Assembly: GCA_008632985.1 (NCBI GenBank) | Contig: QPGO01000063.1 | Coordinates: forward strand, 1-64,000 | Source: Psammoneis japonica | Lineage: Eukaryota | Length of the DNA: 64,000 bases | Reading direction: 5' to 3' | In this document: positions 1 to 43,895 of the stretch, piece after piece | Position numbering within the stretch: position 1 is the first letter of the stretch | Layout: each line of letters opens with the position of its first letter | Program-made: the position numbers and the translations under genes | The notes under the pieces: model-generated | The model's database searches: none | What the model saw: the letters and a program-made list of their open reading frames with translations, nothing else | What the model was told of the DNA's origin: nothing

Positions 1-448
1 TCTTGCCATCGCCACAAATGAGGACAATGGCCGCAGTTCATTGGCCACACATCCTCAGTTCCAAGGGGTTCACTCTGGTGGTGAGTTTTATGACATGTCT
101 TGCTGGTGTCTCCAGCAGGAGCAACAAGCTTGCTGGGTGGATGGTGCATGATGCATGGGCCAGCGCCACTTGCAAAACTAAAATGGAGCATGTGGTGGTG
201 GTCCAGATCATCATCATCACACCATCAGCACACATTGGTTTGAGTCACTGCCTGCACAACACGCACCCCAAATGCACTTAGCCTGCATTTGTTGAGTGGC
301 TTCTTGACCCAACTGTGGTGTCTTTGCACTCTTGATTTTGGAAGCTGCAAGCCTTGTCTTGGGCAGCAGCAGCAGCCCCTTGCACATGATTCCTCCACAC
401 AAGAAGATGCCCAGCTGCACACAAGGTGAGAAGGCAGTGCCCACCAGC

Positions 449-670
449 CAACCTGCAAAAACAACAAGGGAACCATCTGTGTGATGATGCAAGCACTCCA
501 TTGTCTTGGGATGGCTTTTGGCGGCTCAACCTGCAAGAAAGACAAGGGAGCCATCTGTGTGACAGTGCAAGCACTCCGTTGTCTTGGGATGGCTTTTGGT
601 GGCTCAACCTGCAAGCAGGACAAGGGAGCCATCTCTGTGACAGTGCAAGCACTCAGTTGTCTGGGGATGG
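449..670 (+). repeat. 78-bp imperfect tandem repeat, about 3 copies
   Basis: Units start CAACCTGCAA at 449, 527 and 605 and share CAAGGGARCCATCT.TGTGA...TGCAAGCACTC..TTGTCT.GGGATGG. Confidence 0.9.
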
Positions 671-1099
671 GCACAAGAGACTCTGTTGGGTCCAGGAGGA
701 GGCAGCAACAACAGTGGACTTTTGCCGATGCACAGCCCCTTTTCTTTCTGATGTGATTGGCTTGCTTTGGTGACCCAGCCACCCCACTTGCAGAGGCAAG
801 GCAGGGAGCTTTCTGTGTGACAGCACAAGTGCCCGGATGTCTTTTGCTGGCCATGGGTGATTCCATTGTGTCCCAGGAGAGCCAACACCAACCTTGGTTG
901 GGGAGCAAAGGCTTGTCTTGTGTCAATGATGTGGCCCCTTTTCTTTTTGACATGACTGGGGGCGGGCTTCTTTGGCCCAGCCAACACACCTGTGCAGAGA
1001 CATGGAGTGAAGCAAAAACACATTCACTGCAGAAATGACAAAACACAGAGCTGGCACAATCACATTGCAAGCAACACACAGCCAATGTACGAGCATCTC

Positions 1100-2100
1100 A
1101 ATGAGACAAATGAATGTTGCAGTTGTCAGAAATGCACAATGTTGCAGAGCAGTTGCAATTGCACCCTTGTCAAGAAGTTTCATTGACCATCATTTCCCAC
1201 TTGGAAGGTGGCATTGATTGTGAACGTGAACTGAATCATTTCAAAATGATTGTGGTCACAATCTTGTCAAGATCAAACAAAGAATTAGAGTCATTTTCAT
1301 TTGAGTGTTAAACCCCACTTGGAGTGTTGAAATGAACCTTAAAATTGCTTCATGCACAATTGATGAGCACTTGTTAAGAACACAGGATTCTTGACAAGCA
1401 AGTGCAAGTTCTGAACAAGAGCCACAACATTTTCTAGATGATGGCTCGTGAAAATGGCATTTGCTGTGCAATTGGTCCTGAGTCCATTTGAGGCCTTGAT
1501 CAGGAGTGTGGCCCATGCGGGAACACCTCAAAGTTGTGTGATGCGGGATGGCATTTGGTGTTGGAAGTGCAGTGCTGACAGCACCATGACTGGCTGCATT
1601 GTGGCAGCTGGCGACCATTGGCAGAAGTGGCGCCAGCTTGTCAGTTCTTGGAAATTGTCCAGGATTGAGCAAAAGTTGGTGGCAAAACAGACTTGGTCAT
1701 CCAATGTTGTGTGAAATGGTGCAACTCACATGAGCAGCACCAGATGCATGTGGCACAAACCATTGGCCAGGTTGATCTTAATGAGGTGGATTCAACCACA
1801 AGCCAGGTTGGCTGAAAGGATACGTCACAGCAGCCAACCAAGTGTCCGGCCAAATTGCATTGACTCTGCAAGTGCATTGGGATGTGTTGATGTGTTCATC
1901 ATGCCGCAAAAAGTGCAGTCAACAATTGGGCATGGTCTGTGCCCATGTTGTGGTGGTGCTTTGATCAGGCAAAAATGCAGCCCTGGGATGTCCTTGTTGC
2001 ATGGCAAGGTGGCACCACCCAGAAACCTTTGTTCACCACATCTGCCATGTCTTTTGCAAGAACTCAATGTGTTTGCATGCAGACTTGTGTGCCCCCCCTT
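1100..2100 (-). mobile_element. Degenerate DIRS/Ngaro-like (tyrosine-recombinase) retrotransposon reverse transcriptase relic
   Basis: Minus-strand PQHGHRPCPIVDCTFCG...AESMQFGRTLGWLL and IHLIKINLANGLCH resemble the recalled DIRS-type RT segment PQ.dRRPR.IVDYTFSG...EAMQFGRAL.RLL...VYL.KIDL.DGFY after undoing TA->TG/CA and CG->CA changes. Boundaries are approximate. Confidence 0.6.
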
Positions 2101-3334
2101 GTGATGCTGCCTTCAAGCTCAGCAGCATTGGACCACGGATGATCAGCCGCTGTGGCTGGCATGCCTTGGTGTTTGCAGCCAGTCAGTGTGCGGTGTGCTG
2201 TGTGTTGGGGTGCATGCTGGTCAGTGGCCCCCAATTCCCAGTTTGCCCCTGCCACTGTGCAGTTGCAACAAGCAATTGGGGCCTCTTCAGCAAGCAGATT
2301 GGCATCACAAACAACTCAGTCACCCAGTTTGCAAGCATGTGCTGATGCGGTGATGTCCTGACCCCACATGAAGTGGCAATGCTGCCTCTCTTTGATTCCA
2401 CTTGCGGGGGTTGTGGATGCACAGGTCTGGTCTGTGCAGAGTTGAATTGCACTGCAGCAAAGCATCCCTCTAAAAAGAATGTGTTGATTCAACTCGAGAA
2501 CAACCCAATCTTGAATGCTTGTTGGCATGAGGTGCATGCATGATTTTCTCTCTGCACTCTGTTTTTGTTTTCTTTGTCAAACTGCCACAAACACCGGCCT
2601 TTGGTCATGGCATGACCGATGGTTTTTGTGTTTGGTGCTTTCCTCCACCGACTGACGACGATGACGAAACGTGTGATTGTTGGAATTCCATCGAATCGCA
2701 TGACGGTGATGGCCTTGGTGTTGGGGATGATTCAAATGAAAACTGAGGGCTGCAACAAACGACCATGACGTTGTTTGTAGGAATCGCCGCAGTGATCCAT
2801 TGAGCTCGTTTGTGGGATTCATAAGTACGTCAGGTCACTTGACGTGGCCTGTTGGCATTGTGTTTGTTATGGCTACCCTTGCCGGCATTGTCGAGTTGGT
2901 GGCGTGTGCGTCGTTTCATTTGAGCGTGGGTGGTCAGTTTGGTATGATTGGTTTCTTCACATTGCCATGCTAGTGGCGCTCCTGGTGGCACCGTCTCCTG
3001 AAAAGGAAAGCAACGAACCGAAACCGAAGGACGCGTAGCTTAGAATACATTCCACAGTCATAACTGCTTGCACAGCCTCACATCAATTTATAATTTGCTA
3101 TTCAGTGTTCTCCTCCCAAGACAATTCATTCTAGAGTTATGTGTCTGGCGTTTTGATAGCGATAAATGACACTATTGTTCTTTAAGAATATACACAACTT
3201 GGAATGGAAGCATCTTGCATTTGCTCATCGCCCGTGGCATGCCTACACTCAAACAGAGCAGGACTCGAAAGCCCAGACCAGAGAAATCTCAATGAGAACA
3301 AAAGAGAACCTGGCAAGCGATCCGGGCTCGCGCA

Positions 3335-11305: not shown

Positions 11306-13985
11306 CCAAAACGTTGAATTCTGATGGGACTCCGGGCTCACTCCGCAAGGCCTGGATCGCCGCTTGAGGCTTTCTGATCCAGGGGATAGAAAAGGCTGTG
11401 AAGATAGAATGTCCCTTGGGCTGCGCTTTGAAGTTGAAAGGGCACGTGACCTGTTTGTCATCAGAGAACAAAATGCCATTCTTTGGTCTCTCACCACCAT
11501 GTGTGTGAAGTCTTGGAACCTTGCACACAACACCAAGCCTCGCAAAGTAACCAAACGACATACTAACTGCGTAATCCTAAACGAGTTCGCAAGAAGGAAG
11601 GATCTGTACTACACTGCCTTGGAACCGCTCTCTCTTCCCACTCTCTACTACTAGTCTGCTAGCTCTAGAGAGTAGAGAGATAGAAGCGCAAGTCTTCAAT
11701 GAAGCTCACTCGCCTAAACCATTGACCGATATGACGAAGAAAGAAGATAACACTCCGCGTTTGCTTGTAATGCCGCCCCCGTCCTGGAGAGTCAATGTTT
11801 CGAGATGTTCCTGCATAGCAGACTGTGCGAGTGCATGGTACTGTACATTTTGGCTTCGATTAGGTAGCTACTCTGATTCAATCGACTGTAAGATAATGCG
11901 CGTGAGATGACTCTGAACGTGAAACAAATCAAATATTGCTAGAAGGAAGCAGTAAGACATGATTCAAAATCTTCCATCTGGCCGTCTGTGCCGCATGCTG
12001 TCATCCAGCGGGTGCATGCCTTCGCTCTTTATTCTCTACAGGTGATCTAGCTGTCTAGAGTAGAGAGAGCTACTGCGTACTTAAAGCACCATAGCATTTT
12101 GTAGTTGCTTCGGCAACCAATTCAACCAACGTGCATCAGTTGAACACTGCGTCAGTTGGAAGTATAACTTGCATGCACCGACACAGGTCTTTAAAGAAAG
12201 AAATGTGGAGCTCGTCCGATGGACCAAGCGCGAGAAAAAGGAATCGTTCAAGCGCATCACAGACGCGATTGCAAAAGCGCCATCGGTTATCCTAAACCTG
12301 GTATTTCGCGTTTATTTACTTGGCTGGACCGCATTTTGGGTCCGAAATGCGTAGGATTCTACACGATCCTGGTACAACATTTTCAAATCTGGCCCTGCGC
12401 TCCTGTTGCGCTCGACAGACGATGCTTCAGACTGATCTTGGATAGATCTTGCGTGGACGGCCGAGATCTTTTGGGTGACACATAGTGGCACGATTGGGCG
12501 GCAACACCCTTGTGCTGGCAGGGGAGAACATGGTGATGTCATGGTTGCGTGGCAGTTTGCATCTCATTCATTGTGTTTTTGTGCGAGTTGGCCGGGGTGG
12601 GGCTGGTTGGTCGCGCACGTTTGGGTTCGATGCAGCCGTGCAACTGGCCACACCCTGCAGGAAGAGCTGTTGGTTGCGCATGAGCAGCAGAAGCAAGAAA
12701 GCAAAGAACACGGCGTGGGTCAAAACGTTGTAAAATGACGCAACAACAAGCAGCGAGAAGAAACCCAACTTGACCCATGAGTGCAGCGCGCGCATGTTGT
12801 CCAACCACTTCAACAGCATCTCGCATTCCCAGCTTGTAGATGAGGGGACGGCCAGTGGCACAGCCAGACCAAATCAACTGGGGGTGCTAACTGCCAGCGA
12901 AGCGAGCACACGCCCACACCATCGGTGCCGCAAAGCGGCGCCCTTCCCCCAAGAGTGGGGGACCGATGGGGTTGACAGCCTCGCTGGGGAATGAGGCGCC
13001 CGCAGAGCGGAAAAAATTGCACACAGACAACATTTTTGCTCATTTTTAGCGCGTTTTCACGACTTGAACTGCTTGCCTGCTGGAGTTAAAATAAGCCAAA
13101 ATTGCCGTGCCACTTCTTTGCCATTTCCTCCAAGTCTAGAGGGTCAGTTGACATCCATGCGGCAACCCAGAGCAAACAAAGAGACCGCCGACGACATGCC
13201 CGGAAAAATCAAAATTCGGAAAGAGGAGGTGGGTCACACCACCTGCAGCATGAATTGACGCGACTTCTGCACAAGTGTGACTGAGAAGTGACGTTCGTCG
13301 TATGATTTCACGTGGTTTCTACGCAGAAATGGTCTTTTGGCAATGTGGTGAGAGAGCGTGATGCAATGTGAAAGGTTTTTTAGAGCTCGTGCAGCTCGTG
13401 GACTGGCGAGTTTTCTCGAAGACTGGGGGTGCTGAGTGCCCTCTAGCACACCCCTGGCTGCGCCACTGGGGACGGCGTTCGCGTTTCTTGCCATGGTGTT
13501 GTTGTGCATTGTCGTGTTGTTTGCGTGCGAAGAACACGGGATCTGTTTGTCCGACGGTCACTGTGTTTTGGCGATGGTGGATGTTTTGCCATGTGCAATT
13601 TCAGGTCATTTTGAGAAGCGCTTCGCGACAACTCTGTTCACACCGTTAAATGGAATTTTTTTTTGTCTGGATTCCAGAGTTCTTTCGAGGTGTTCTGTGA
13701 GATTTTTGAATTGCGGCACACACATTTTAAAGACGAAAGAAATTTCAATGACATGCAAAAGCTTCGGAGATTAAGAACTTGTCTTCCATGTGGACCACGC
13801 AGATTGTGCACCGGCGGAAAATCCACTGCATGTCAACTCACTCAGCAGCACTTCTACATGTGTTCTACTTGCACCTCACACACGTGCACCCACACCTGCA
13901 CAGTCCAACAACCGCGCACTGCGTGCGCGAGACAAATGTCCTCACATTCATTCATGCATTTGCACACAAATGCCAACAGTGGCAG

Positions 13986-16555
13986 GAAAAATCCTGAACC
14001 ACATTCTCCCCCAAAACTCCAACCACCAAAAACCGAGGGGTCGGAAGTGCACTTTTGGGAGCTCTGTTTCTCCGCACAAAAAAATGCGTTTTGACAACTC
14101 GACCATGACGACCTCCCGTTCTTTGTCCCCTGCACCTTGCCACTCCTCCGTCCACACATGTGCCGAACCGCCTTCTTCTCCCGTTTCTGCTGACATGCGT
14201 GGCATGCTTCCTTCTAGCAGGATGCCTCAAATTTCGGGCAACCAACATGCTGCTGCTGCACAAGATGTTTGCACGGATGCTGCCGCTTCCAGCCAAATTG
14301 ACGGCACCTTTTCCAACGACGCTGCCGCCGCATCCATCTTGCGGGTCTCTCTTGATGTCTTCCAAAAGGCTCCGCATGCTTGGCAGAGCGACACATCGTG
14401 CCGTGTGCTTCAAACAGACCTGAATTCGGGTGTGCGGATTGCTGCGACACAGCAAAAAACAATGGAGACGTGTTCCAGCCGCACGTGAACCAAGTCGTGC
14501 ACAAAAACGACATTTGCGCGATTTTTGCGTGGTCCCCAACTTGCGATCGAACTTTCACCACCAGAAGTGTGGATTTGTCCAAATGTGAATGTTTTGCAAC
14601 ACTGACAAGACTCGTGTGAGTGTTGCAATGTCGTTGTTGTTGTGCTGTCTGTGTTTTTCATTGCGTTAAAAGATTCGCAACACAACGGATGATTTTTGGC
14701 GAAAACATTGCCGTCACTTGGATGTTGCCCAAATGTGTCTTTCTGCTGTGCTGCTTGGTGGATTTTCTACCTGCAAAGAAATCTCGGCATAAATCCACTG
14801 ACGTACAATCAGCATTGAGTCCACTGAGGAAGTTCATGATGCATGTCCCATGACGACTTGAACACCCCACAAAAAACTGTTCAAATGTTCATGCTCTAGA
14901 CGCCTGTGAAAGCCAATCCGCTCAAGTGTTTTACACAAAAATGCTTCACACACTCAAAGACACACAATTTGTGTTCAAAATCCATTGTTGTTTTGTGCGT
15001 CACCTGGGACTGGAACACGTCTGGAGTGCATGACATGACAGACACACAACTTGTGGCGCTGCCTCACAGTGGACCAGAAGTGACACACAGCACAACATGC
15101 CTGCCAGAGGCAGATTGGACACAAATGACAATGACAATGAAACAGAGTGCTTGAATTCGTGTGTGCGGATTGCTGCAAAATGGCCAAAGAACACACAATG
15201 ACAGAGACACACAACATTGTGCCATCTCACAGTCGACTAGAAAGAACATGCAGTGCAATGTGCAACACCTGCCGGAGATTGGACAGGGCCTGCAAATGAC
15301 AACGACTGCTTGAATTCTGGGTGTGTGGATTGCTGCAACATGCGACCTGGCAGAAAAAGAGCACATTGTGATGCGCACAAACTTGCCTCCTCACAGTCCC
15401 TCACAAGCATCACGCAGTGCCATGAGCCTGCCAGAGAACACTGCACACACAAACTGCAAGTCAAATCATGACAGATCCATTGTCTGTGGCCAACAGCACT
15501 GCAATCATTTTCTTTTCTTCCCCGTGTTTTTCTTTCGTCAACGCGCCTCTTGCACAAGTTTCCACATTTGAAACTTGGCTCGCACCGTGGGCTTGACATT
15601 GTCGCATCGTCAAACCATGATTCAATGAGAATGCCATTGCCCACCTGACAGCCAAAGGCATGCGGCGAGTTGTCCACCAAGACCGTCTTGTCCAAGTCAC
15701 GGCCCAAGACACTCAAGTCCTTGAGGCAATTGCCTTCCACGGCAAGACAGGATTCGCGAAACATGCGGTGTTGAGTGAACACTTGCCATCCAATGGGTGG
15801 GTTGGTGGGTGAGAAGTGCACTTCAATTCAAAAAACACACAACTGCAACATGCACTGCCACTCACCCGGATCAATTCGATTCAACAACTCATCGGCACAA
15901 ACTTGTTGAGATGCCGTAAAGACAATGACTTCATGCTTGCCATGAGTGCTTTGCAAAAACTCCTGCAAGTGCGGCCTCAGACGGATGTGGACTTGGGATT
16001 GAATTCCTCTTCCTCCTCCTCTTCTTCTTCATGCAAACAATTGTCCGTGGCTGCTTCTTCTACATGAAGATCTTCTTCTTCTTGGTCGTCCTCTTCATCT
16101 TGTGTCGTTTCCGTGGCAGCTGGTTTCGGAGCTGCGCCCCAGACCGTTTGAGAGACGGCTCATCAGAACCTTCCACAACACGACAATGCGAATGAGAGCC
16201 CAATTTCTCCGGGGACGCAATCACAGGAGCAGACCAATCCCGGCGCTGTGTTTGTGTTTCAGGCACAGGATCTGGCGAACAGAAGCCCAAATCCTCCGGA
16301 TGGCAAATCGGCTGTGTTTGGGTAACGATGGTGGGTGCAACGGTGCCGGCCAACACAGGAGGGGGCTGCCGCATCAGACATGGCAGGCGGGGATGCGTCA
16401 GGTGGTGTGGGGGACGAAGAACGGGAGGTTGTCATGGTCGAGTTGACGAAACGCGTGATGTTTTGGTGTGTGCGCAGTCTTCCAAAAAGTGCGCTTCCGC
16501 ACCCCTCGGTTTTTGGTGGTTAGAGTTTTAGGGGAGCTGTGGAACAGGAATTTTC
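13986..16555. mobile_element. Putative Pack-MULE-like element with about 150-bp inverted arms
   Basis: 13986-14135 is the reverse complement of about 16403-16555 (AACCACCAAAAACCGAGGGG...CAACTCGACCATGAC.ACCTCCCGTTCTT.GTCCCC). No clear TSD. Confidence 0.55.
15600..16060 (-). pseudogene. Captured fragment of a CTD small phosphatase (SCP/CTDSPL2-like, FCP1/NIF family) gene
   Basis: Reads EEEEEFNP / VHIRLRPHLQEFL...EVIVFTASQQVCADELLNRIDP | GTGAGT intron | [55 protein letters not shown]. The DLDET catalytic segment is missing. Confidence 0.85.
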
Positions 16556-16694
16556 ACTTGTGGAACATGCACATTCATGTGGATGTTAACATTGAAACTC
16601 AACGCACGGCGAAGCCGTGCGCGCACAACCACGAACACACACACAGCTCCCCCACCACAGGGGTGGATCGGCAATGTCAGTCGGCATCAGACTA

Positions 16695-19600
16695 CAGCTT
16701 TCCCTGCAACCAACCTAAACGCCGTAGAATTTGTGTGGGACATGCCAGATTTTTGTGACGTGTCCGCTTTGACGTCATCGCAGTGATCTTGAAGCACGAG
16801 AAAAAGCACGAGACAATGGCGCTGGTGGAATCGGCGTTTTTTGTGGTTTTTGCTGCTGAGTCCTCTCTGATCCCCTTGCACAGCTTGATGGTAAACACCC
16901 GTCAAAATGTCACAAGGCAATGCGATCAGAGCGTCTCGGTCGACACCGACTGGCATTGTCACTTCGCATTTCAGGGATGCGTGCAAGATGCCGAAGTTCC
17001 AACACAGATGGATCGAGGCGAACTGTTTTGTGCATGTGATGAAAGAGGCCTGCACAATTGACAAAGATTTGAACTTCAATGCCAAGAAGTTGAACAGTGC
17101 ATTGAGTAGAGAGTTGGATCTCCATTTCCAGACATTGACAAGGACACGTCTGAGAACGATGGCGGGGTTTTCCGAAAGCAGTTCCGACCGAAGGGAGAGC
17201 CGTCTGTTGTTGCGCACTGTGCCTGCAAAGAGCAAGAATTGCCAAGGTGTGTACCCTCAACAACCAATGATCTTAGGCGTGTGATGTTGACTGTTGAAGA
17301 GCACAACAAGAAAGTAGAAACTTGAGCCGGCTCCAGCAAGAGAACAGCAGGGTATGACGCAAACGAGTGCGCACAGACGTTGCAGGAAAACGAGCGAAAG
17401 AAAAAGAAAAGGAAAGAACTGCTAGAGTCCTCTGCAACAGAGGAGAAATCATCCAATGATGGTGGTGCTGATGAAGATGACACTCCTGAGAATGATGCCA
17501 CACCTGCTGATGATTTGACCGCTGTTTGTTGGCGCCTTCTGGGGATGACACGACCGTGCGGAACCTGTTCAATGCAGATGATGGAGAGGATGCAAAAAAG
17601 GCAATTGAGAAACAGATGGATAAATTGACTTCTGGATTTGCTTTTCATGATGGATGGAAAGAAGTGATCGAAGGAGGCGACCCTGACAACCTGTGCACAC
17701 CCAACGACGCTCATGTGATTCGATTGAGATGCCAGCATCTTGCGATCGCGCTTGACCATGCATTGAAGAAGCTGCCAAAAAGGAACACTGCATGGCTTGA
17801 CTGCTGTCAGCATGCAATCGATGACCTCAGCGGTGCAGGTGTTAACTTTGTAAAAAGTCGCCAAACCATAGCTGCTTGGTGTCGCATCTTTAGGAATCTC
17901 AGTTCCTTTCCTCATCCCCGACCAAAAGGAAAAGGAGACCCACCGACATTTGAAGCACATCCAAAGATGAAGAGGAAATTCATCAAGTTTGTGACAGCAA
18001 ACCTTTCTCGACTTTCTGCTGAGGTGGCCACAGACCACTTCCACGAAGTGCTTGTCCCGGAATTCTTAAAGAGAGAGAACAATGACCGTCGCAAGAACGG
18101 GGAAGACATCTTGGAGTCGGAACGGGAGTTCCTGAATCAGCATGGATTGCTCACCGGGGAAAACCAACTGTGCATTTCTTCCAATGCAGTTTCCAACTGG
18201 ATGAATCTATTTGGTTTCCGGTGTGGACCAAACAAAAAGATGTGTTGTGTTGACAATCATGAACGTCCCGACAATGTGAGGTGTCGGAATGCAATGGTCC
18301 GTTGATGCTTGATGATGGAAGAACGATGCCCACATTGGACACAACTTCCAAAAGCCACTGCCATGGACCTTGTCAAAGCTGAAGCTCTCCCAGCCAAAAT
18401 AGGGCATGAGTGCCAAGTCGATGGAGAAGATTTTATCGAGTGTCATGTCGACACTGTCATCGACCCGGAGCATCCAAGCCTTGCGCCCAAGCTGTCCGTG
18501 CAATTTGGAGGAAGTGAAAGTGTGAGAAAGGATCCGAATGTAAAGCCTGTCATGACATTTGGACAGGACGAGGCTGTTTTTAAGCAACACTTGCTAAGCA
18601 CAAGCAGCTGGTCGGGTCCTGAAGGTGAGCGGCCGCTGCTGCCCAAAGATGATGGAGAAGGCGTGATGCAGTCTGCATTTCAATGTCGAGAGGTCGGCCT
18701 CATTCGAGATGGAGACATTTCGGAAGAGCAACTCCAAGAGATGAATGAAACTCGAGCAGGCAAATGCTGCACTGATGAAGAAGCTGCAGAAACAGCATTC
18801 AGCAAGAAGCAGCATGAGCCGAAGTTGAAGAAAAGTCCGTTCATCCGCGAGTTCGAGCATGGAGCGAATGGCGACGGACACTGGAATTACAACCGCATGT
18901 TGGTGCAATTGGAGGATTGCGTGGATTGCTTGAAAGTGCTGCATCCTCAATTTGACTGTCATTTCCTTTTTGATCATTCTTGCGGGCACGACAAGCAGAG
19001 AGCAGACGGACTAATCTGCAACAAGCGCACGATGAACGCAGGAGTCGGCGGCAGTCAGAACAAGATGCATCCTGCTGAGATTCTTCAGGCAGAGGGCTTT
19101 CTAGGTCCTCATGCTGAAGCAGTTGGCATGCCATCTGCAGGACAAGTGCAAACAATGGCATTCAGTGAGGAAGACCAGGGACCATGCTGGATGACGCTGG
19201 AAGAACGAGAAGCTGAGAAATGTGACGCACCCATCGAGGGTCAAACTGAAACTCGGAAGTTCCTGCGTGATGAAATTTTTGACAAGCTTCTACAAAAGAA
19301 CATCAAGAATGTCAGGGGTGAGAAAAAGGATGAATTGATTGATGTGGCAAAGAGCAACAACATACCTGTCGAAGAAACCATTCAAAAGGTGAAGCACGGA
19401 TGGGTCAACAAGCCGAAAGGATTGAAGCAAATTTTGCATGAGCGAGGATGGATTGATCCCAACAACCCTGGAAAATACACTGTGGATGGTGCAAAGGGCA
19501 AAGATGGAGAGATCGACAAGTCAACATCTCTTCTTCACTTGATGGCTACTTGCGATGATTTCGTCAACGAAGAGACGTTGTTGCAAACCATGGGTCGCAA

Positions 19601-20145
19601 AATGGGTGTGGCCATTGATGGAACGCCAAAGTGTCACCCAGAAATGGCTGGGGAGGGCATTGAATGTTCTTGGGGACTCGCAAAGCAGTGTTGTCGTTTG
19701 CAACCTTTGTCAAGAAAGAGGGGAAAGCAAAACTTTAGAGAGTTGGTACGAGAATCAATGTCATCAAGCGCACTCACGACTGACAGGATGCAAAAGTTCT
19801 CGCGACGAGCACGACGACACATTTGTGCTTACATGGTTCTTTCACAACCTGATGTGTCTCAAGAGGTTCAGCATGAAGCCTTGTCTCTTGAGACCATTGA
19901 AAAGCTTGTCAAAGAGTTCAAAACGCACCGCAGTGCGATTGATTTTGACAAGGGTTTCATTGTGAGGACGCTTTTCGCGGGGTGAAAAGATATTTTTTGT
20001 AGGTAAATAAAAAACTCTAGAATATAGATAAGATTTATATATAACGCTGCTGGCGATTTTACTGTGGCTTTTTGTATGAAAAATAAATTTTCCTACCAGT
20101 AACGTAGGATTAATACGACGTTTAGGTTGGTTGCAGGGAAAGCTG
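16695..20145 (+). mobile_element. Full-length IS630/Tc1/mariner-type DNA transposon, 3451 bp
   Basis: TIR CAGCTTTCCCTGCAACCAACCTAAACG (27 bp perfect, 31 of 32 when extended) at 16695-16726 and 20114-20145. TA target-site duplication at 16693-16694 and 20146-20147. Confidence 0.92.
17526..19985 (+). pseudogene. DDE transposase, interrupted by one TGA at 18303-18305 and by Tyr->Cys/His changes
   Basis: ORFs 17526-18305 and 18309-19985 are in the same frame. Motifs GQDE, FLFDHSCGH, PKCHPEMAGEGIECSWG and VDNHERPD. The true start may lie further upstream. Confidence 0.85.
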
Positions 20146-20745
20146 TACGGTAGGGGGGCCCTAGGGCAGTACGAGCGCTTGCGAACGTTTCGGGTTATGG
20201 TCAATTGGAATGTCCTCTTCAATCCCGAGAATCCCCGCTGTCAAATTACGTTGATAGGGTCCATGCCGCGAGAACAAGCCAAAGAGATCCAACATGATAT
20301 GAAGGACACGGGAGGCAATGCAATCCTTGTGTTTGAGTAAAAATTTGTATCAGAAAGGACTAGTGGTTGTTAACGTTTCTCCTTGCGTCCCATCGTTTTG
20401 ATGGTCCTGTCACAGATTAACTTTTTTTATGGAATCTTACTTAGTCACACCGCTGCCTTTAATCATCCCAAACTGGGGTTTGCTAAAAGTCTCACTCCCT
20501 GCCCCCTAACATAAACCCTAACCCTGACCGTGCAAAACTGTTTTTTTCTAAATGTTGGGGTGTAGAAGTGGTGAAGCCGTGTATGTTGTTTTCGTCGTGG
20601 ATTCCTTTTTTTGGCTTAATCTGTGACAGGACCGACTTAATCTGGGGTATTTTTTCGCTTTAAGCTTGTTGGCTGACGAGATGATATGTAGCGAATGACT
20701 AGTTGACATAGATGCTACGGTGCCATGGTCCTGCACGTTCGTTTG

Positions 20746-23479: not shown

Positions 23480-26400
23480 AATTGCGTTAGACTCGCTGCA
23501 TGCTCGGGGCGGGAGAGAGTGCTTTTGCGTGGACAGCGGATGGCGTGGATGATGGCAATGAATGTCATTCTGCCGGCACCGGCATGTCCCATTTACAGTT
23601 TGGTGCACAGTCTCTCTCTTTCTCTCCTCTTGCTGCTGGCAAGCCTCCAGAGCTCAGCTGCAGCAGCGCAATGGCGGCAAACAAGGAATTGGAGATGACA
23701 GCTGACAATGTTGTTGAGCAGATGGCAAACAAAGTGGAGATCTTGGTTAGTTCAAAAACCTTTGCCAACCACTTTGATGTCAAAAAAAGTGCCTGCACTC
23801 TGACAAGAGATGAGCAGAATGCAAGAAGGGCTGGAATCAGGTGCCCATGACAAATTTGTTCAAACACACAGCGAATGTGTTCCCGACAATGCTCGCACAT
23901 TTCACTGCACCACAGTCAAGAAGCAATTGTGTCATCATCCATCTTTCCACCAGAGCACAGCATCAATCTCACTGCCACAAGTTGATGAAGCAAGTGCGAT
24001 GAAAGTGAAGCAAGCAACACCACAGCCCACCATTGAAAAATGGGAAGATTTCTCGGACCTCTTTGAACAGGAATTTGAAACAACAAGACTCTCAAAACAT
24101 GTTTCCGCACCGCTGTTAGAACCATGGAAAGTGACACAATGTCAACCAACAAAGCTGCAGAGCAAAGCTTCCTCAAGGAGTTTGTGGGCCTGTTTGAACC
24201 TTTTTCCAATGCTGGTCTCGTTTGTCTGCCCTTCCAAGCAGCAGACTGGGGGATCCAATCATTGGGAAGCCAGGTGAAAGCTGTTGTGTGAATTCAGTTG
24301 GGGACAGCCCCACCAGGCAATTGGCAGTTTTTGAAGTGAAAGCCTTGCATGATGTGTTGCTTCCAAACAACTTTGAGGCTTTGAAGAAGGACCACATGAG
24401 GCTGCAGCAGGCATCCCTGCCACAGCCACTGTTGACGCCACTTTCCTGTGTCTGCAGGCTGTCTGTGGTGACGCTGATCCCACAGAAGCGTGCATTGGAA
24501 AACGCAACTCCTGGAGTGCAAGACCTGCAACAGGCTGCAGGAGTTCCACATGACTGAGATCGGCGCGACTGGCCATCGTGCAAGTGACTCACCTTGCATG
24601 AAGGGTCTGCGCAGCATGCACGCAGTGCTGAGTGTGATTGATTCTGTGCAAAGACTCAAGCTCCGCATGTCTTGCTGTCACACATGCACGCACTCCATGG
24701 TGGGTAAAATGGTCTTACAATTTGTGCAAGACATGAATTGTCAACAGTTTGAGCACCTGTGCAGGAATTGGACAAGTGCTCAAACTGTTGACAGTTCATG
24801 TGTTGTGCAAATTGCAAGACTGTTTTACGCACCATGGAGTGTGTGCATGTGTGACAGCAAGATGTGCAGAGCTTGAGTCTTTGCACGGAATCAATCACAC
24901 TTGGCTCTGCACACATCCTGTGCAGACCCTTCATGCAAGGTGAGTCACTTGCACAATGGCCGCCAGTCACGCCGGTCTCAGTTGCATGGAAATTCTGCAG
25001 CCCACCCACCACAGCCACCATTGATGCTGCTGCAAGGTGGCTTTTGAGCACCAAAAGAAGGAAAAGAAAAACAATCAGGCAAAATGTTGGTCCCAAATCT
25101 GTCAACCTCTTGCACAGGAATTGTGCGCATGGCAGACAATGGTGTTTGATGCGGAGCTCTTTTCTGTGCTTCCAAAGCACACTTCAATGACCTTGAAGGA
25201 TGTGCCAGGCAAGTTGGAACAGTCAAAATCACACGTGCATTCTTTGCTGGTGAAAAGGACTTTCTTCAGAAATGTGCATGTGTGACTTGTCTGGTCAACT
25301 CAAATCCAGCCCCAATCAACGAGGTGACCGGCAGGGGTCAAAGCCTTGTTGTCAATTTGGGTGCAATTCCACACAGATGCATCACACAGGTGGAAACCAA
25401 ACACGTGACTTTGTCATTTGACAAAGACTTGCATGTTGGAAACTTCAATCAAGTGCAAATCCAGTCCCAATGCTTGTGTCTGTCCTGGCAATTCTCACAG
25501 CATGGCAGCAACATGCGGGACCTTGCAATGCCAAGCAAATCCCCCCCCCCCCCACTTGTCTGATGCAATGACAACACACCAACAACAATGACATTTGCTG
25601 GCCAGCACACTGGCTGCACCCAACTGGCATTTGTGCTTTGTCTGCACTCACACAAGCAGTCCACCTTGTGCATTGGGTGCAGCCAGTTTGTGATGAAATG
25701 GCACCAAAATGATGTGCAGCAAACAAAGTGCACATGTTGGCATGCAAAAGCCATGGGGAGCACCTCCACCTCTCACTGAACAATGGACAAGCACTTGATC
25801 ATTCCATCTGGGGTGGGTGCATCTCTTAAAAATGTGTGTGTTTCTCTCTGGAGTGTCACCAAATCATGTGTTCTCTGTGATCTTCAGCCAGAGTTGAGTG
25901 TGATGATGCATGCAACATTTGCAAAAGCCAGCCTCCCACCAACATTGTTGCTTGTGTGATTTTTGGGGTGCTTGTTTTGACTCATGATTTGCTTGATCAA
26001 GATGGTCAAGAATCTGAGCACTCTTTCTTTGTTTGGCAGGTGCCAGCATCAGTTGATGAGCCACAGCTCCACCAAAACAAAAACAAGAGCTCGGTCTTGT
26101 GTGACAGCATGATGCTCTCTCCTTTTGTTCAGCAGGATCCAGCGTCAATTAACAAGTGGGGCACTCACACACCAAACAAAATCAAAAGAGTCCTGCGATG
26201 AGCAAAAAACATTTGCAGCAGCAGCATGTCATCAAAAGGGCAACAATTCACAAAAATTATGGTGTCAGGTTGCACCAGCTTGGCTCATTTGCATGAGAGC
26301 CACTTGCCATCAGTGGAGACAACACAACTGCACATGCCATTGTCAATGCCATTGTTCATGCAGTTTTGGGATGCTTGTCTTGATTCAAAGGGGGGCACAG

Positions 26401-27820
26401 GGCATGCCACAGCAACATTGTGGTGCGATGAAAAAACCTGATTGTGCAGCAGAATGGGGACTTCTGTGTGTGAGTGATGAATGTGACCACAACAAAGAAA
26501 ATGAGTGAGATGATGAAACAAAAATGCAAAACAATTCAATCACAGCACAGAGTGAAAGTGAGTGCAGAATTGTTGCGCAGTTGCAAAACCCATTTTTTCA
26601 TCCAACAACTGGCCGGCTGACTTCAAACAAGCAACCTGCATTGATTCTACAAGTGCATGGCAGCAAAAACAAGCAGATGGTTGGAGCCACTCTGGCCAGT
26701 CCCACCTGACTTCATGATTTGGCTGCTTGCTTGCACTTCAGCACCCCTTGTGGTGTGTGCTGTGTGTGTTGTCAATGGCAGAGCAAGCAAAAGTCAAGGA
26801 GCACACAGGTCCAAGCAGATGGCAGATGATTTTGTGTTCAACAGAAAAAAATTCTGCACAATTTCTTGTGCAACCTCCAACCTCCAACTCTCCCCTGATT
26901 TCAGTGTGCTTTGTGCACAAATCAAGCCACATGTCAAAAAAAAAAACACCACACTTTCACCACTGCAACAGGGAGAATGGCAGCTGGATTGCAGAAAAGA
27001 TGGCACACCTGACACCAACAACAGCCATCACCGAGCCAGATGCACCCAAGCTTTCTGCATCCTTGAGTGAGAGCAGCAAAAATGCATTGCTTGGTGCAAA
27101 ATTTTGTTGAAAAGTGCAAACAGCACACACACACAGGCAGGGCGGCTGCTGCAAGCAACACGTTTTTTGAGAGATTCTCTTGGTCTTGTTGAGGATCATG
27201 AGAGCATTGTTTTTGAGGCCAAGCAAAGTGTTTTCCTTCATTGCAAATGCCCTCAACAGAGGAAAATGAATCAAAGTGATGCTGGCGGTCAATCCAGTGT
27301 GAGCACTGGCATGGATGGGGAGACATGTGGCTCTAAATTCTTTGAAGAGGGCAACTTGATCTCCATGGAATCGCCATCTTTTTCAACATCAGAAGGCATG
27401 TTTGGATTGAGAAGATCACATGTTGGGCCCTGCCAAGATTTCTGTTGTGGTTGTGATGATCACAAATCCAACAAAAATCATCGAGATGATGGCAACAATT
27501 TGAAACAGAAGAACTTGCCCCCTCCAGAAAAAAAACAAACTTTGCAGTGCACAGAGGTCCAACAGAAAAGCCAAAGCTGCTCATAACCTTTCAGGACATG
27601 GTGCCCCAGGTGCAACACTCCCAATCAAGACAGTCAGCAGCACACACTGTTTTTGTTGGCCTTTCTTCTTGCACAGCATTGTGCAAGTCGGAGCCAAGAG
27701 CTGATCTCCTCGTACGACACGCCATGTGCAATCGTCTGGCTCGTGTCGTCCGTGCTGTTGATCGGTTTTCAATTTTCAATTTTGCGACTTTTGTCTGGAG
27801 TGGGGCACACTGACTGGATC
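23480..27820. other. TpA- and CpG-depleted repeat block 3
   Basis: TA nearly absent and TG/CA in excess. Contains a foldback palindrome and possible gene remnants. Confidence 0.85.
24541..24994. repeat. About 450-bp foldback palindrome (MITE or foldback-like)
   Basis: 24541-24760 is the reverse complement of about 24771-24994 around a short spacer; ORFs 24490(+) and 24656(-) encode near-identical peptides. Confidence 0.9.
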
Positions 27821-30800
27821 ACCACCGTACCGGTAGACACGGATTGCTTCTCTTGCTCATTATAACAACATGAAATTAGAAATACCGATGGTGCAGGTGG
27901 CAGCAATGGAGAAAATATGGGTTTAACGTTTACGTGTGTACGGCATGGATGTGCCGGTCATGATGGGGTCAGTCAGGCGAGTCGTATCGTCGTGGAAGAT
28001 AGGAAGGATAGCAAAGTACGACGTAACAACATCGACTCTATGCTGTAAACTTGCAAAACATGCTGGCATCACTTCATCGCTGCACGGCAAAAGAATCAAA
28101 ATTCTGACATGGAAGAACTTTGAAAACCGGACCATTGCTCCTTCGCACTAGGGAAAGGAATAACCGAAACACTTCCATCTATTTCCGTTTGGAATGACAA
28201 TGACACTGCGAAAGAAAAGTCCAACGAAGATCTCGGGGAAACAGTGCTTGACCGTTGGTCTACCATTCCAGGGTAGAGAAAAGCTCGTCTCTGAGGAGCG
28301 CCATGGCTTCCCTTTGGTGGGGAAGGTGAAATCGCGACGCTTTCGTCCACAGAAGAGAAGTCGTAGGCTTGTACCGATTCCGCGGTATCCAATGAGCTCG
28401 AAAGCTCCGTGTCAGAAGAATGGGAATCATCCTTCCGCCCGTCATAAGCCAAACGGGAGCTCTCCGAGTGGTCGAGAGGCCCAACCAATGACAAAATGAC
28501 CGGTACCAGCATCAGTCCGTGCGCTACTCCCAGCACAGGAATTGCCAGGAATGTGTAGAAGAAGGTTCTCGCAATCTCCGACTGGGTAAGGAGGAGAGGA
28601 AGGACTCCGATGAATGTCGTGAAGCCTCCCAAGAGGATTGATGTACCCATTGTAGTAAGGCACTTGTATACACGCTCGTTGCGAGTCGTGCCATCCTTGA
28701 TTTCGTAGTAGGTGAGCACGACATGCATGTTGTAGTCAACAACAAGACCAACACTCATAATCAGTCCAATTGTTGAAACGCCATTGATATAAATCCCAGC
28801 GGCGTAAAGCACAGCCAAGATTTCAATGTAGATGGCTGCCACAACGGGAGTCAACAGGAACGCGCCGATTGGATGGGGGATGAAAAGCAAAGAGATTACA
28901 AACACTGCCAAGAGCCCAAGCGCAACGGTGAACAGAAGCTCTTCCACCAAAACAGAATACGTCTCCCACAAGGTAAACAAAGGGCCAAACGCAAAGAATT
29001 TCCAATCGCCCGTTCCCTGATTCACTGGCTGCGACCGTATCACCCTGCGTGCCGCCTCAAGTGAATCAATCTGGTTCTCAACATCATACAAGGATGATTT
29101 ATCAAACCTCACAAAGGTGCGGGATGCGATAATGTCGCCAGACTCATCACGCACGATGTGAGGAGAGTAAAGCGTTTTGGCGGGTTCGATATTCAGAAAA
29201 AGATCAATCCCTTCCTCAAACGTGTAGTTCGCAAAGGCGACCTCCTGTTGCAATCTCTTAATATCACGCAACCAAAACAATTCCGGTGGGTCGGATACGT
29301 ACGGGAGCGCCACCAACTCGTCGACAAAGTCAAGCATCTGCTGCTGAACTTCTTCGGATGATTGGTCCACACCACGAAAGTACACCCCGACGGGATACTG
29401 AGCCATTGTCTCTGGAACAGTGTAGGCGTCGAGGGCGGCAAAGTGTTTTCTCAGATACGAGTCTGCAGGAACGAGTTTTCGAAAGTCAAATTCTTGCTTT
29501 TGGTTCACGGCACCCAGTATTCCAAACACCAACAATGCTGTAAATGCAATGATTATGACAACCTTCGAAATCGGCTTGAGAAGAATTCTGGAATACGCCG
29601 CCATGAGCCTGGTCACGCAGTTAGACTTTTGCTTTGAGTGGCTCTGCTCATGAGGAGGTGGCGTTTTGGACTTGACACACACAAGACAATCGTAGCGACC
29701 CGCCTTCTTCCGTCGATCGTCGTATGCCAAAATTGCAATAAAAAAGGTAATCTGGTAGATGAAATCGATAAGGACGGTTGGCGCGGCGTAGTAACTAAAC
29801 CAGCGAACTCCGGGTAGGCTGGATGTGCATCCCAGAAAAAAGGCCGTCACGGTCGTCAGAGTCGAAGCTGTGATACTGACACCGACTTCTTCCATCACAT
29901 GAACCACTCGATCCGCAAAGGGCTTGGACGAGTCGGATCGCTGAAAGGCACCCGTCAGTATAAAGGTATCGTCCAGCCCGATTCCCACCATGACGTACGG
30001 GAACACTTGCGTGACGCTTGTGAATGGAACGCCAATCAGAAAGAGCAGCCCGTATCCGGTTGCAATGGATACGAGAATGGTCACAACGGCACCCACGCCC
30101 ACGAGACCTTGGCTTTGCACAGGTCTCCTGAAATTGGACAAGTAGAGCGAACAAAAGCACCCCATAATGATAAAGGCAAGCGCAATGTACGGAATGTCCT
30201 TCTTGAGTCCACGCTGAAATTCATCGTCAATGGACCGCTTGGTATTGATGCTGACAAAGCACGCAGACCCATCCTTCTTCCACCCGTCATTGACACCATG
30301 TATTTCATTCACTACATTAAACTCGTACTCGCCCGCATTGGAGAATTCAGCTTCTGGCTCTGCAATACGAATCATGAGCGCTTTTGCACTCGTCATGAGA
30401 AGCTCTTCTTCGGAAGCAGAAGAAGTGTTTTTTGGTAACTCTGGTTGAGATGTACCAAAGACAACGTCTCGAAACACTGGTTCCCCCGTTGGGTATTCCA
30501 ACTCGGACAAGATGCGTCTCAGCGCTACATCCTTCTCATCTTCTAGTGCCAGTCGCTCTTGCATTTCCGTTCGATCATGACGAAAGAATGCGGTTGCCGA
30601 GTGTACCTCGCACTCTCCATTTTGACCCCTAAAACACGCTTTTGCATACCCCGTTGTGTTTTGCATGACTTCCAAGACATCAAAGAGACAATCCATGCCC
30701 CGTCTGTTCAACACATTCTCTCCAGACATGTGCAGAATGGCATCCACAAAACGGGGTGGTGCGGGGAATCCGGCCTCTCCGGAAACGAGCCAGTTCAACT

Positions 30801-31625
30801 GTCTGTCGGAATAGGAATTTGTGGGTGTCCACAGCTCGTTTCGCTCTGTTTCGACAACAAAGTTGGTGGCAAAACCCGCACAAATGAACGTGGCGGCAAT
30901 GATTATCGAGATACATATAGTCACACCGGGAGAACGTGCTGCGGCACTTGCGATCCAAACAAGGCCTTTGACAAGTGGTCTTTTCACATAGCGTTCGGTA
31001 TACATGTCCCACTTTGCGAGACACTTATTGTTGTTTTTGTTGCTACTTATTGGAGCAGCAGCCGAGCGGCGGTGTGTCGAATCATTGTCATCGGAGGAAG
31101 TACCCCATGTTTCTGCGTCATCTTCCCACGATGAACTACGTCCCATGTCGTTTGATGATAATGATGAAACTTCCATCTTTTGTGAGTTGGGTCGTTTGTT
31201 GTTTACAAAATGCTTTATTCAAGTCGCGTTCTCTCTCGTTGTTAGTTTCGTGGGAAGTGGCAGCATGTTTTCACAGTTTTTTGTGTTTTGGGAACAACTA
31301 AATGAGAGTGAGAAAGTATCACAAGATTGGCAACGGATTTCAGTCTTGTTGTGGAGCCTTCCGATAGGTATAGAAATTCTATGCCATGATTACAACGCAT
31401 ACCCTTACAATTTCATACGTCACATATAGTTCATATGAGCGGACTAATGTTGTTATTAATATTCCGCCAAAATAAGACTGATAGAAAAATCTTTTTTTAA
31501 TTAGAATTAATGAATATACCAATAAAAATTTCTTGTAACGTAAATTCAGTTCATTCAAATTCAAAATTTCATCATCCTGCCCTAAACCTCACGGCGCCTT
31601 ATATTCTTTATTCAGATATTATACC
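26509..31625. repeat. Segmental duplication copy A (repeat flank, Patched/NPC1-like gene and promoter)
   Basis: Colinear with about 39485-43895 in direct orientation. Copy A has an extra about 670 bp (about 27025-27690). Confidence 0.9.
28096..31176 (-). CDS. Patched/Niemann-Pick C1-like sterol-sensing-domain RND membrane protein, copy A
   Basis: Intact 1026-aa ORF. SSD with GIGLDDTFIL and GVSITASTLT, second repeat GLVVDYNMH...HGLMLVPVILS. Confidence 0.9.
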   Translation of the reverse strand: MEVSSLSSNDMGRSSSWEDDAETWGTSSDDNDSTHRRSAAAPISSNKNNNKCLAKWDMYTERYVKRPLVKGLVWIASAAARSPGVTICISIIIAATFICAGFATNFVVETERNELWTPTNSYSDRQLNWLVSGEAGFPAPPRFVDAILHMSGENVLNRRGMDCLFDVLEVMQNTTGYAKACFRGQNGECEVHSATAFFRHDRTEMQERLALEDEKDVALRRILSELEYPTGEPVFRDVVFGTSQPELPKNTSSASEEELLMTSAKALMIRIAEPEAEFSNAGEYEFNVVNEIHGVNDGWKKDGSACFVSINTKRSIDDEFQRGLKKDIPYIALAFIIMGCFCSLYLSNFRRPVQSQGLVGVGAVVTILVSIATGYGLLFLIGVPFTSVTQVFPYVMVGIGLDDTFILTGAFQRSDSSKPFADRVVHVMEEVGVSITASTLTTVTAFFLGCTSSLPGVRWFSYYAAPTVLIDFIYQITFFIAILAYDDRRKKAGRYDCLVCVKSKTPPPHEQSHSKQKSNCVTRLMAAYSRILLKPISKVVIIIAFTALLVFGILGAVNQKQEFDFRKLVPADSYLRKHFAALDAYTVPETMAQYPVGVYFRGVDQSSEEVQQQMLDFVDELVALPYVSDPPELFWLRDIKRLQQEVAFANYTFEEGIDLFLNIEPAKTLYSPHIVRDESGDIIASRTFVRFDKSSLYDVENQIDSLEAARRVIRSQPVNQGTGDWKFFAFGPLFTLWETYSVLVEELLFTVALGLLAVFVISLLFIPHPIGAFLLTPVVAAIYIEILAVLYAAGIYINGVSTIGLIMSVGLVVDYNMHVVLTYYEIKDGTTRNERVYKCLTTMGTSILLGGFTTFIGVLPLLLTQSEIARTFFYTFLAIPVLGVAHGLMLVPVILSLVGPLDHSESSRLAYDGRKDDSHSSDTELSSSLDTAESVQAYDFSSVDESVAISPSPPKGSHGAPQRRAFLYPGMVDQRSSTVSPRSSLDFSFAVSLSFQTEIDGSVSVIPFPSAKEQWSGFQSSSMSEF

Positions 31626-39800: not shown

Positions 39801-40110
39801 GCAGAATTTCTGCACAATTTCTTGTGCAGCAACCTCCAACCTCCACCCCCCCCAGATTTCAAGGTGCTTTTCACAAATCAAGCCACATTTAAAAAAATGC
39901 ACTTTCACCACCACAAGAGGGACAATGGCTGCTGGATTGCAAAAGAGGTGTCACAACTCACACACTGGCAACAGCCAAGAGCTGTTGTCCTCGTGCAACA
40001 CGCCACGTGCCATCGTCTGGCTCGTGTCGTCCGTGCTGTCAGTTGATCGGTTTTCAATTTTCAATTTTGCGACTTTCGTCCGGAGTGGGGCACACTGACT
40101 GGATCACCAC
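33820..40110. other. TpA- and CpG-depleted repeat block 4 with internal direct repeats
   Basis: About 17 TA in about 6 kb by manual count. Repeat pairs at about 34380/34550, 34955/35226, 35703/35903 and 38790/39238. Confidence 0.85.
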
Positions 40111-43100: not shown

Positions 43101-43895
43101 GCTCGGTTTTGACGACAAAGTTGGTGGCAAAACCAGCGCATATGCAAGTGGCAGCAATCATGATGGAGATAAATATAGTCACGCCGGGAGAACGTGCCGC
43201 GGCGCCTGAGATCCATAAAGGCATTTGACAAGTGGCCTTTTCAAATAGCGTTCGGTATACATGTCCCACTTTGCGAGACACTTGTTTTGGCTGCTACTTA
43301 TTGGAGCAGCAGCCGAGCGTCGATGTGTCGAATCATTGTCATAAGAGGAATTATCCCACGTTTCTGCGTCATCTTCCCACGATGAACTACGTCCTATGTC
43401 ATCATCTAATGATGATGATGAAACCTCCATCTTTTGTTTGTGTATAATGATGAAATCTCACGGGTCGTTTGTTGTGTTTAAAATGCATTCATATTCAAGT
43501 CGCGTTCTCGTAGTTGGTTTCGTGGGTGGAGCATGCTGTTCACAGATTTGTTTCGTCTGAACGAGTGAGAAAGTATCACAAGATTGGCAACGGATTTCGG
43601 TCACCGGATGAGTCTTGTATACGGCATATTTAGATCTATAGATTTTAGAAATAGATTGAAATGCTTCTACACAGAATTTCGTACGTCACATTTATGTTCT
43701 TATGCAAAGACATATGCTATTATCGGAACACCCGCCAAAATACGACTGATAGAAAAATCTTATTGACAATACAAGAGCGTATAGAATACAAAAAATTTCC
43801 TGCAACGTCAAACCGGTTCATTCAAATTAAATATTTCGTCACATTGCCCTTCAACCTCAAGGGGCCTCACCCTTTTTTAAAATTATAATATAACT
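39485..43895. repeat. Segmental duplication copy B
   Basis: Colinear with 26509-31625. Confidence 0.9.
40388..43430 (-). CDS. Patched/NPC1-like protein, copy B, with two 1-bp frameshifts (about 43220 and 42790; error or pseudogene)
   Basis: ORFs 43430, 43281 and 42787 align piecewise with copy A at high identity. Confidence 0.8.

Follow-up and report, generated by a model that had tools for sequence, protein, structure and literature searches.

The first 64,000 nucleotides of contig QPGO01000063.1 of the diatom Psammoneis japonica (hereafter, the window) consist of ordinary gene-bearing DNA alternating with blocks which, in a 1-kb profile, are nearly devoid of the dinucleotide TA and often also of CG, and in which TG and CA together are almost doubled. 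Following this profile, the window was partitioned with a three-state hidden Markov model over dinucleotide classes, in which the borders of six blocks appear as sharp state changes. Normal DNA (41.6 kb, 1557 TAs) carries genes for a metallophosphatase, two Patched/sterol-sensing paralogues, a P-type ATPase and Erv1. The mutated DNA falls into a heavy class (four blocks, 14.1 kb, 47 TAs, about 11 CG per kb) and an intermediate class (two blocks, 8.3 kb, 67 TAs, about 48 CG per kb). The few TAs that survive in these blocks are found preferentially in the context YTAR (Y, pyrimidine; R, purine), and we consider it probable that this excess is the footprint of a flank-preferring, TpA-erasing mutator acting on repeat DNA.

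The leftmost heavy block (1–2646), in which TA and CG are both nearly gone, continues beyond the left edge of the window; it has 12 TAs, 27 CGs and 640 TG+CA in 2647 bp; no protein family was found in its open reading frames (ORFs), and a unit of about 78 bp is present in three tandem copies (449–670, 82–90% alike). The other heavy blocks are located at 23596–27684 (11 TAs, namely 5 YTAR, 6 mixed and no RTAY; 46 CG and 966 TG+CA), 33989–39986 (17 TAs: 9 YTAR, 7 mixed, 1 RTAY) and 55423–56799 (7 TAs: 5 YTAR, 2 mixed). Within the first of these three, a 470-bp stretch (24533–25002) matches its own reverse complement at 84%. The intermediate class comprises a long block at 12486–19963, with 8.3 TA and 46 CG per kb and 62 TAs (27 YTAR, 7 RTAY), and a small one at 46074–46894 with five TAs. 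An ORF-wise Pfam scan of 100 mutated-block ORFs of at least 90 aa revealed no reverse transcriptase, integrase or Copia-type domain, and in four of the six blocks it found no mobile-element protein. Its sole match was to part of an NLI-interacting-factor-like phosphatase domain (Pfam NIF, E-value 7e−17) at 15240–15827 on the reverse strand, within the long intermediate block; it is likely to be a piece of a host gene, or a pseudogene, that the mutated tract has taken in. Judging from their Cys/His-rich translations, the long ORFs at 228–1097 and 35539–36462 (heavy) and at 13775–14485 (intermediate) are probably non-coding.

The long intermediate block hosts a transposase-like ORF (17514–19985, forward strand), which is open in one frame apart from one in-frame TGA at 18303. 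Its product has 202 database relatives with up to 47% identity across most of the length. Those that carry a name are annotated as hypothetical proteins in Fragilaria and Nitzschia; a single member is called 'transposase' by one source. Neither the ORF nor its intact homologues contain a Pfam family, except for a SAP domain in one homologue, so that the label 'transposase-like' is based on the name given by that source and on copy number. As for the latter, run X1 contains the intermediate block, and among its contigs 2583 match positions 12000–20500 at 80% likeness or more, which indicates that the element of the intermediate block is highly repeated. The differences among these contigs fall at 921 transition and 246 transversion places (A>G 210, G>A 265, C>T 226, T>C 220; each transversion type 22–38). 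The protein family, a large multi-copy family of diatoms, has conserved stretches FLFDHSxGH and HxELAGEGIE.

The loss in the mutated blocks is confined to TpA, and AA to AG change is not occurring. From normal to intermediate to heavy DNA, TA drops from 37.4 to 8.1 and 3.3 per kb, whereas AA stays flat (79.9, 78.3 and 81.8 per kb), AG hardly changes (56.2, 56.5 and 60.9 per kb) and A/T runs of four show no reduction (16.1, 18.6 and 20.1 per kb). The first-pass annotation of this DNA, which had been made from the sequence alone, had noted the survival of A-runs, as borne out by these levels, and had named AA to AG changes as frequent as TA to TG changes as an observation that would speak against its proposal; in the window, AA is not lost. 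The same annotation had also put forward DNA polymerase eta, which changes A to G at WA motifs (W, A or T). Error-prone repair synthesis of this kind could act on TA, which is a WA motif, but with AA not lost, AG barely increased and A-runs persisting, the WA pattern does not fit. A 3′ pyrimidine rule is, moreover, not known as a feature of WA hotspots, and we regard this explanation as very unlikely. In the intermediate blocks TG+CA gained 43 per kb against losses of 29.3 TA and 10.8 CG per kb. Because gain and combined loss match, normal DNA appears to be a reasonable proxy of the ancestral densities. The loss from the intermediate blocks amounts to about 78% of TA against only about 19% of CG, indicating that CG loss is a separate process, and TA erasure seems to have been faster or earlier than CpG decay.

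The contexts of the surviving TAs differ markedly from those of TAs in normal DNA. Region 1–2770 contains exactly 12 TAs, nine of which are YTAR: CTAA at 179 and 2471, TTAG at 279 and 1286, TTAA at 1309, 1340, 1375 and 1779, and CTAG at 1435. The remaining three are TTAT at 89 and two RTAY sites, GTAC at 1088 and ATAC at 1821. This recount coincides with the manual figure of the first-pass annotation, and its 'about 9 of 17' for a fourth block is exact for 33989–39986. By contrast, no block corresponds to the 'Copia block' with about 8 of 12; the nearest, 23596–27684, has 5 YTAR among 11 TAs and is without a reverse transcriptase or integrase family. The annotation had assumed that 25% YTAR would be expected. 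The bias holds, but the figure is too high, real backgrounds being 16–20%, so that the expectation was conservative: the binomial p for 9 of 12 is 4e−4 against 25%, and 8e−6 to 5e−5 against the measured 15.6–19.6%. Over the window as a whole, the share of YTAR rises from 15.6% in normal DNA (243/1557) to 40% in intermediate (27/67) and 60% in heavy blocks (28/47), with that of RTAY falling from 32.6% (508/1557) to 13% (9/67) and 6% (3/47); the shift across the three DNA classes has a pooled chi-squared p of 1.3e−18. Taken in window order, the blocks have 9/12, 27/62, 5/11, 9/17, 0/5 and 5/7 YTAR, and the bias is thus present in five of six, compared with YTAR shares of 0.10–0.19 in six normal segments. 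The flanks are unique at all 114 surviving TAs of the mutated blocks, which therefore represent independent sites. In addition, since all changes are transitions, the process cannot alter the purine or pyrimidine class of a flank, and the R/Y categories are robust.

To what extent the excess exceeds expectation depends on the background chosen. In normal DNA, YTAR makes up 19.6% of TAs outside long ORFs (155/790) and 11.5% inside them (88/767), where it is low because stop codons are avoided. As a family-matched control, we used 80 metagenome loci (277 kb) coding for relatives of the transposase-like protein. All of them are unmutated, with TA odds of 0.44–0.84 compared to 0.05–0.13 in the mutated blocks of the window, and their 14355 TAs comprise 18.6% YTAR and 30.6% RTAY. 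The TA contexts of the mutated blocks differ from those of these loci with p = 6e−16. The pooled survivors, with 55 of 114 YTAR (48%), lie above every background considered (15.6, 18.6, 19.6, 21.4 and 25%), and RTAY is correspondingly rare (12/114 vs 30.6%, p = 3e−7). TAs formed de novo from TG and CA by ordinary transitions are predicted to be 21% YTAR, a model rejected by the observed 55 of 114 (binomial p = 2e−10). Separately, three of the metagenome loci (L041, L056 and L063) have CpG odds of 0.02–0.26, TG/CA odds of 1.5–1.6 and TA odds at the low end of the 80 (0.44–0.48), a pattern resembling CpG decay in other organisms where TA is not erased.

In both block classes survival is graded, with YTAR surviving best, RTAY worst, and sites having a single TAY (YTAY and RTAR) in between. 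We described this gradation with a two-strand Poisson model, in which the rate of each A is set by its 3′ neighbour, survival requires that both strands escape, and normal DNA is taken as the proxy of ancestral densities. The fitted rates for TAY and TAR are 1.27 and 0.31 in intermediate and 2.19 and 0.55 in heavy blocks, that is, they differ about 4-fold in both. Two rates are preferred over a single one (likelihood-ratio p = 1e−7 for intermediate and 8e−13 for heavy blocks), and the two-rate model predicts the RTAY counts. A version with a separate rate for each of the four bases is modestly better (p = 0.01 in each class) and orders the 3′ neighbours as T at least equal to C, followed by G and then A. 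Survival by +1 base, in intermediate and heavy blocks respectively, is 0.325 and 0.108 for G, 0.189 and 0.038 for C, and 0.078 and 0.033 for T.

Survivors alone cannot tell apart a rule in which the changed A is followed by Y from one in which the T 5′ of the changed A is preceded by R on the same strand, but the products can. At sites with a single TAY, the former rule predicts YTGY and RCAR, and the latter YCAY and RTGR. In normal DNA the two product pairs stand at 1705:1566, compared with 468:349 in intermediate and 1059:725 in heavy blocks (odds ratio 1.31, p = 5e−7). In the five larger blocks the ratio is 1.38–1.66 (1.66 for 23596–27684, 1.38 for 33989–39986 and 1.44 for 55423–56799) and in the small block at 46074–46894 it is 1.07, whereas six normal segments give 0.98–1.17. 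The asymmetry indicates that the favouring base is a pyrimidine 3′ of the changed A, and not a purine 5′ of the T on the same strand. Consistent with this, the excess of TG in intermediate blocks is 11.0 per kb before C, 7.0 before T, 2.2 before A and 1.4 before G. Assuming that CG decay divides evenly between the strands, we estimate that the TAY strand takes a share of the conversions at single-TAY sites of 0.91 and 0.94 if the window serves as control and of 0.69 and 0.77 if the relatives do; of 1000 bootstrap resamples, at least 99.5% gave a TAY-strand difference greater than zero.

Both strands of DNA are targeted, not one strand of RNA, because TG and CA are nearly equal in number in every block (336/304, 732/701, 454/512, 718/724, 75/71 and 143/154) and a runs test on TGY/RCA labels detected no strand-coordinated tracts in the saturated blocks (z from −1.1 to +0.5). 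These results are relevant to another route, whereby the double-stranded RNA of repeats would be edited by an ADAR-like enzyme and the edits fixed in DNA through reverse transcription. ADARs resemble the process seen here in that the edited A is read as G, but they also accept A at −1, and here AA is untouched. Although U is favoured 5′ of the edited A (Table 1 in PMC10661471; bioRxiv 10.64898/2026.01.13.699255), the hotspot listed in PMC10661471 is 5′UAG, whereas TAG is relatively protected in the window. Furthermore, the footprint is found in DNA, affects the two strands equally and includes a DNA-transposon-like element as well as non-coding DNA. We therefore give hardly any credence to an ADAR-like route.

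The direction of change can be read from the Tyr codons of the transposase-like ORF. In an alignment with 49 relatives, 24 columns have Tyr in at least half of the relatives; at these columns the window copy retains 3 Tyr and otherwise has 10 Cys, 8 His and 3 Phe, that is, 18 Cys or His compared with 0–3 in each of the 49 homologues. The polarity is thereby fixed as TA to TG or CA. The first-pass annotation had claimed, for this ORF and not for region 1–2770, that presumed Tyr to His changes mostly follow a purine, whereas Tyr to Cys changes also follow pyrimidines. The counts go the same way (7 of 8 His after purine, 3 of 10 Cys after pyrimidine) without being significant on their own: Tyr columns after a purine (RTAY, two target strands) now have 7 His, 7 Cys and 1 Tyr, and where a pyrimidine precedes (YTAY, a single target strand) the counts are 1 His, 3 Cys and 2 Tyr. 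At first codon positions after T, four of four codons with A followed by a pyrimidine now have G, compared with one of two with A followed by A; the sites are few, and one further column, now TTT, is uninterpretable. When the ORF alone is compared with 53 intact ORFs of relatives, YTGY is increased by 7.6 and YCAY by 0.3 per kb, so that YTAY sites behave as predicted. Among 40 of the 1173 variable places in the related contigs of run X1, there were three single TA-type differences at single-TAY sites, all in the predicted direction. Internal repeats of the mutated blocks differ at four positions as TA vs TG/CA and at 32 by TG vs CA double differences; they carry no information, since either TA or CG may have been ancestral. 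In the coding strand of the ORF the gain of TG relative to the same 53 ORFs is about 23 per kb and that of CA about 8 per kb, which may reflect a transcription-linked strand bias or differences in composition between families; the split of 10 Cys to 8 His gives no support to a strand bias.

Taken together, TpA-specific change of A:T to G:C takes place on both strands, in defined blocks, with an approximately 4-fold preference for a 3′ pyrimidine. The proposal of the first-pass annotation that YTAR survives and that 5′-TAY-3′ turns into TGY on either strand agrees with graded survival, product asymmetry and the small polarised codon counts, all of which point in the same direction. The context rule is thus real and now measured, and we place the process in the window with known TpA hypermutation, as a new case whose flank rule is also new.

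Several observations nevertheless weigh against a flank-preferring mutator or limit the form that its preference may take. There is no YTAR among the five TAs of block 46074–46894. Even YTAR sites are fewer than the proxy predicts, by about 44% in intermediate and about 66% in heavy blocks, which implies that the preference is quantitative, a matter of rate, and not absolute. Survivors also carry an excess of A at +2 (46.5% vs 27–29% in controls) that persists when conditioned on the +1 base, typical survivors reading TAAA, TAGA or TACA; a simple flank rule leaves this excess unexplained. The polarised Tyr tests give Fisher p values of 0.18 and 0.59, albeit in the predicted direction. In the comparison restricted to the transposase-like ORF, RTAR sites do not fit (RCAR −0.3 vs RTGR +3.6 per kb relative to the 53 ORFs) and the product asymmetry is not significant (1.16 vs 1.12, p = 0.79). 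Finally, the large tests use ancestral proxies, namely normal DNA of the window and distant relatives of one element, instead of true ancestors. The last two points are what one would cite in favour of a mutator without any flank preference, the YTAR excess then reflecting the ancestral make-up of the repeats or TAs formed after the mutator had stopped; that YTAR varies between 19.6% outside and 11.5% inside long ORFs adds to its appeal. However, 48% YTAR (55/114) is above all backgrounds tried and RTAY is depleted as well, the independent product asymmetry agrees with the survivor bias, and the same 4-fold ratio is obtained in two block classes of differing age. An absence of flank preference is accordingly improbable.

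On our preferred reading, a mutator with the flank preference measured here works as follows. The A:T pair of a TpA step is changed to G:C, giving TG, or CA as read from the other strand. T is required immediately 5′ of the A, and the reaction is about four times faster with a 3′ pyrimidine (T at least equal to C, then G, then A). The two strands are hit independently. RTAY, with a good target on each strand, therefore disappears first; YTAY and RTAR have a single good target and are changed mainly on that strand; and YTAR, with no good target, lasts longest. CpG loss is a separate, slower decay. The agent may be an enzyme which converts adenine in DNA to inosine by deamination, the inosine being copied as G, and which would be directed at silent or repeat chromatin. 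A DNA adenine deaminase is, from what the sequence allows one to say, the most likely candidate. A scan of 17 of the 29 window ORFs of at least 200 aa, plus a trimmed version of another, revealed no deaminase family.

Against deamination of adenine it must be held that TAY on one strand is RTA with T to C on the other, so that the resulting sequence is the same for deamination of A and for modification of T. Under the latter scenario, a TET/JBP-type enzyme would hydroxylate T in 5′-R-T-A-3′ of repeats and the modified or oxidised base would be miscopied as C; as the motif is strand-ambiguous, this would produce the same TA to CA/TG footprint, with the flank rule read oppositely. 5-Hydroxymethyluracil pairs with A, and a near-exclusive T to C outcome is not known for it. 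The route is made plausible by dinoflagellates, whose repeats carry 5-hydroxymethyluracil that silences transposons, as reported in PMC11572971. According to work cited there, T is replaced preferentially in TA and TC dinucleotides, but there is no loss in TC context in the window. In addition, the preprint on Bigelowiella discussed below, in which the same TpA spectrum is described, proposes an adenine deaminase (bioRxiv 10.64898/2026.01.13.699255). On balance, thymine chemistry strikes us as unlikely, although less so than the alternatives considered above. Of the 'deaminase-like enzyme' suggested in the first-pass annotation, what stands is the TAY rule and the survival of AA and A-runs, whereas the enzymatic step stays conditional, given that the thymine route would leave the same motif.

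The preferred adenine deaminase can be compared with known enzymes. In tRNA, the A34 target of TadA and of ADAT2–ADAT3 is preceded by U33, giving U-A-C, and early adenine base editors reportedly prefer YAC. Both TadA and ADAT2–ADAT3 resemble the putative mutator in having T (U) directly 5′ of the target A, and evolved TadA acts on DNA. The analogy with TadA drawn in the first-pass annotation is apt as regards T at −1 and C at +1, but less so in that T at +1 serves the mutator no worse than C does. The target of the tRNA A34 deaminase is listed as 5′ACG (Table 1 in PMC10661471). For bacterial TadA the context extends to G at +2 (UACG). In the window no such requirement is seen: survivors with C at +1 have G at +2 in 21% of cases, compared with 16% in controls, and TACG therefore shows no extra loss. 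Another difference is that both strands of chromosomal DNA are affected. The APOBEC3/AID enzymes offer a parallel in deaminase hypermutation of mobile DNA with a short motif readable from survivors and products; they change C to T at TC, CC or WRC, whereas the pair changed here is A:T.

Repeat-induced point mutation (RIP) of ascomycete fungi changes C:G to T:A, mainly at CpA, and thereby creates TpA. Like the process in the window, RIP is a dinucleotide-specific, repeat-aimed transition mutator which kills transposons and whose flank preference leaves a compositional footprint. It differs in polarity, for here TpA is destroyed and CpA/TpG gained, as established by the Tyr codons, and in its response to duplication. 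The window contains a segmental duplication with a Patched/sterol-sensing gene (27692–31599 and 39973–43867, 89–93% identical), and the 263 differing aligned positions of the two Patched-like copies include 29 TA-type and 46 CG-type differences and 134 transversions. This is ordinary divergence. A 3-kb duplication at about 93% identity was hence not mutated, and simple duplication is no trigger here. The left flanks of the duplication (26509–27015 and 39485–39963) are 75% alike and both lie inside heavily mutated DNA.

The closest known counterpart comes from Bigelowiella natans, where A:T to G:C hypermutation of integrated viral DNA is confined to TpA (Mettrop et al., bioRxiv 10.64898/2026.01.13.699255). 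According to the preprint, the products there are also TpG and CpA, TA-poor and TG/CA-rich windows are clustered, and the changes stay within foreign or repeat-like DNA, arising de novo at very high rates in some lines; its authors propose an adenine deaminase, with an ADAT2-like candidate. The corresponding features of the window are TpA-confined loss, TpG and CpA products, localisation to blocks and the sparing of genes. The two cases differ in that the Bigelowiella host is an unrelated alga, a chlorarachniophyte, in which changes occur live in mutation-accumulation lines, whereas here an old footprint is seen in transposon and other repeat DNA of a diatom. The main text of the preprint states no flank rule, the words 'context', 'flanking', 'trinucleotide' and 'tetranucleotide' being absent from it, although its site table, supplementary Table S2, with roughly 230 de novo TpA mutations, may hold one. 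This preprint was the only report retrieved by our literature search, which found no paper on a TpA-erasing mutator in diatoms. One may tentatively speculate that the signature stems from a natural, chromatin-aimed DNA adenine deaminase of TadA/ADAT2 ancestry, in effect a natural 'adenine base editor' used against transposons in diatoms, shared with the chlorarachniophyte system and widespread among algae of the SAR group (stramenopiles, alveolates and Rhizaria), a scenario we hold to be possible but not the more probable one.

The measured rule turns the footprint into a testable biochemical prediction, namely T at −1, a pyrimidine at +1 preferred about 4-fold, both strands acted upon and AA spared. 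It argues against ADAR-like and Pol eta-like routes and provides a direct criterion both for candidate enzymes, which can be assayed on TAC/TAT vs TAA/TAG, and for deciding if one and the same system operates in Bigelowiella and in the diatom. For annotation, it means that ORFs derived from transposable elements in such genomes will show Tyr replaced by Cys or His and will have lost TAA and TAG stops. If the agent is indeed a natural DNA adenine deaminase, the finding would have a bearing on genome defence and on base-editing tools.

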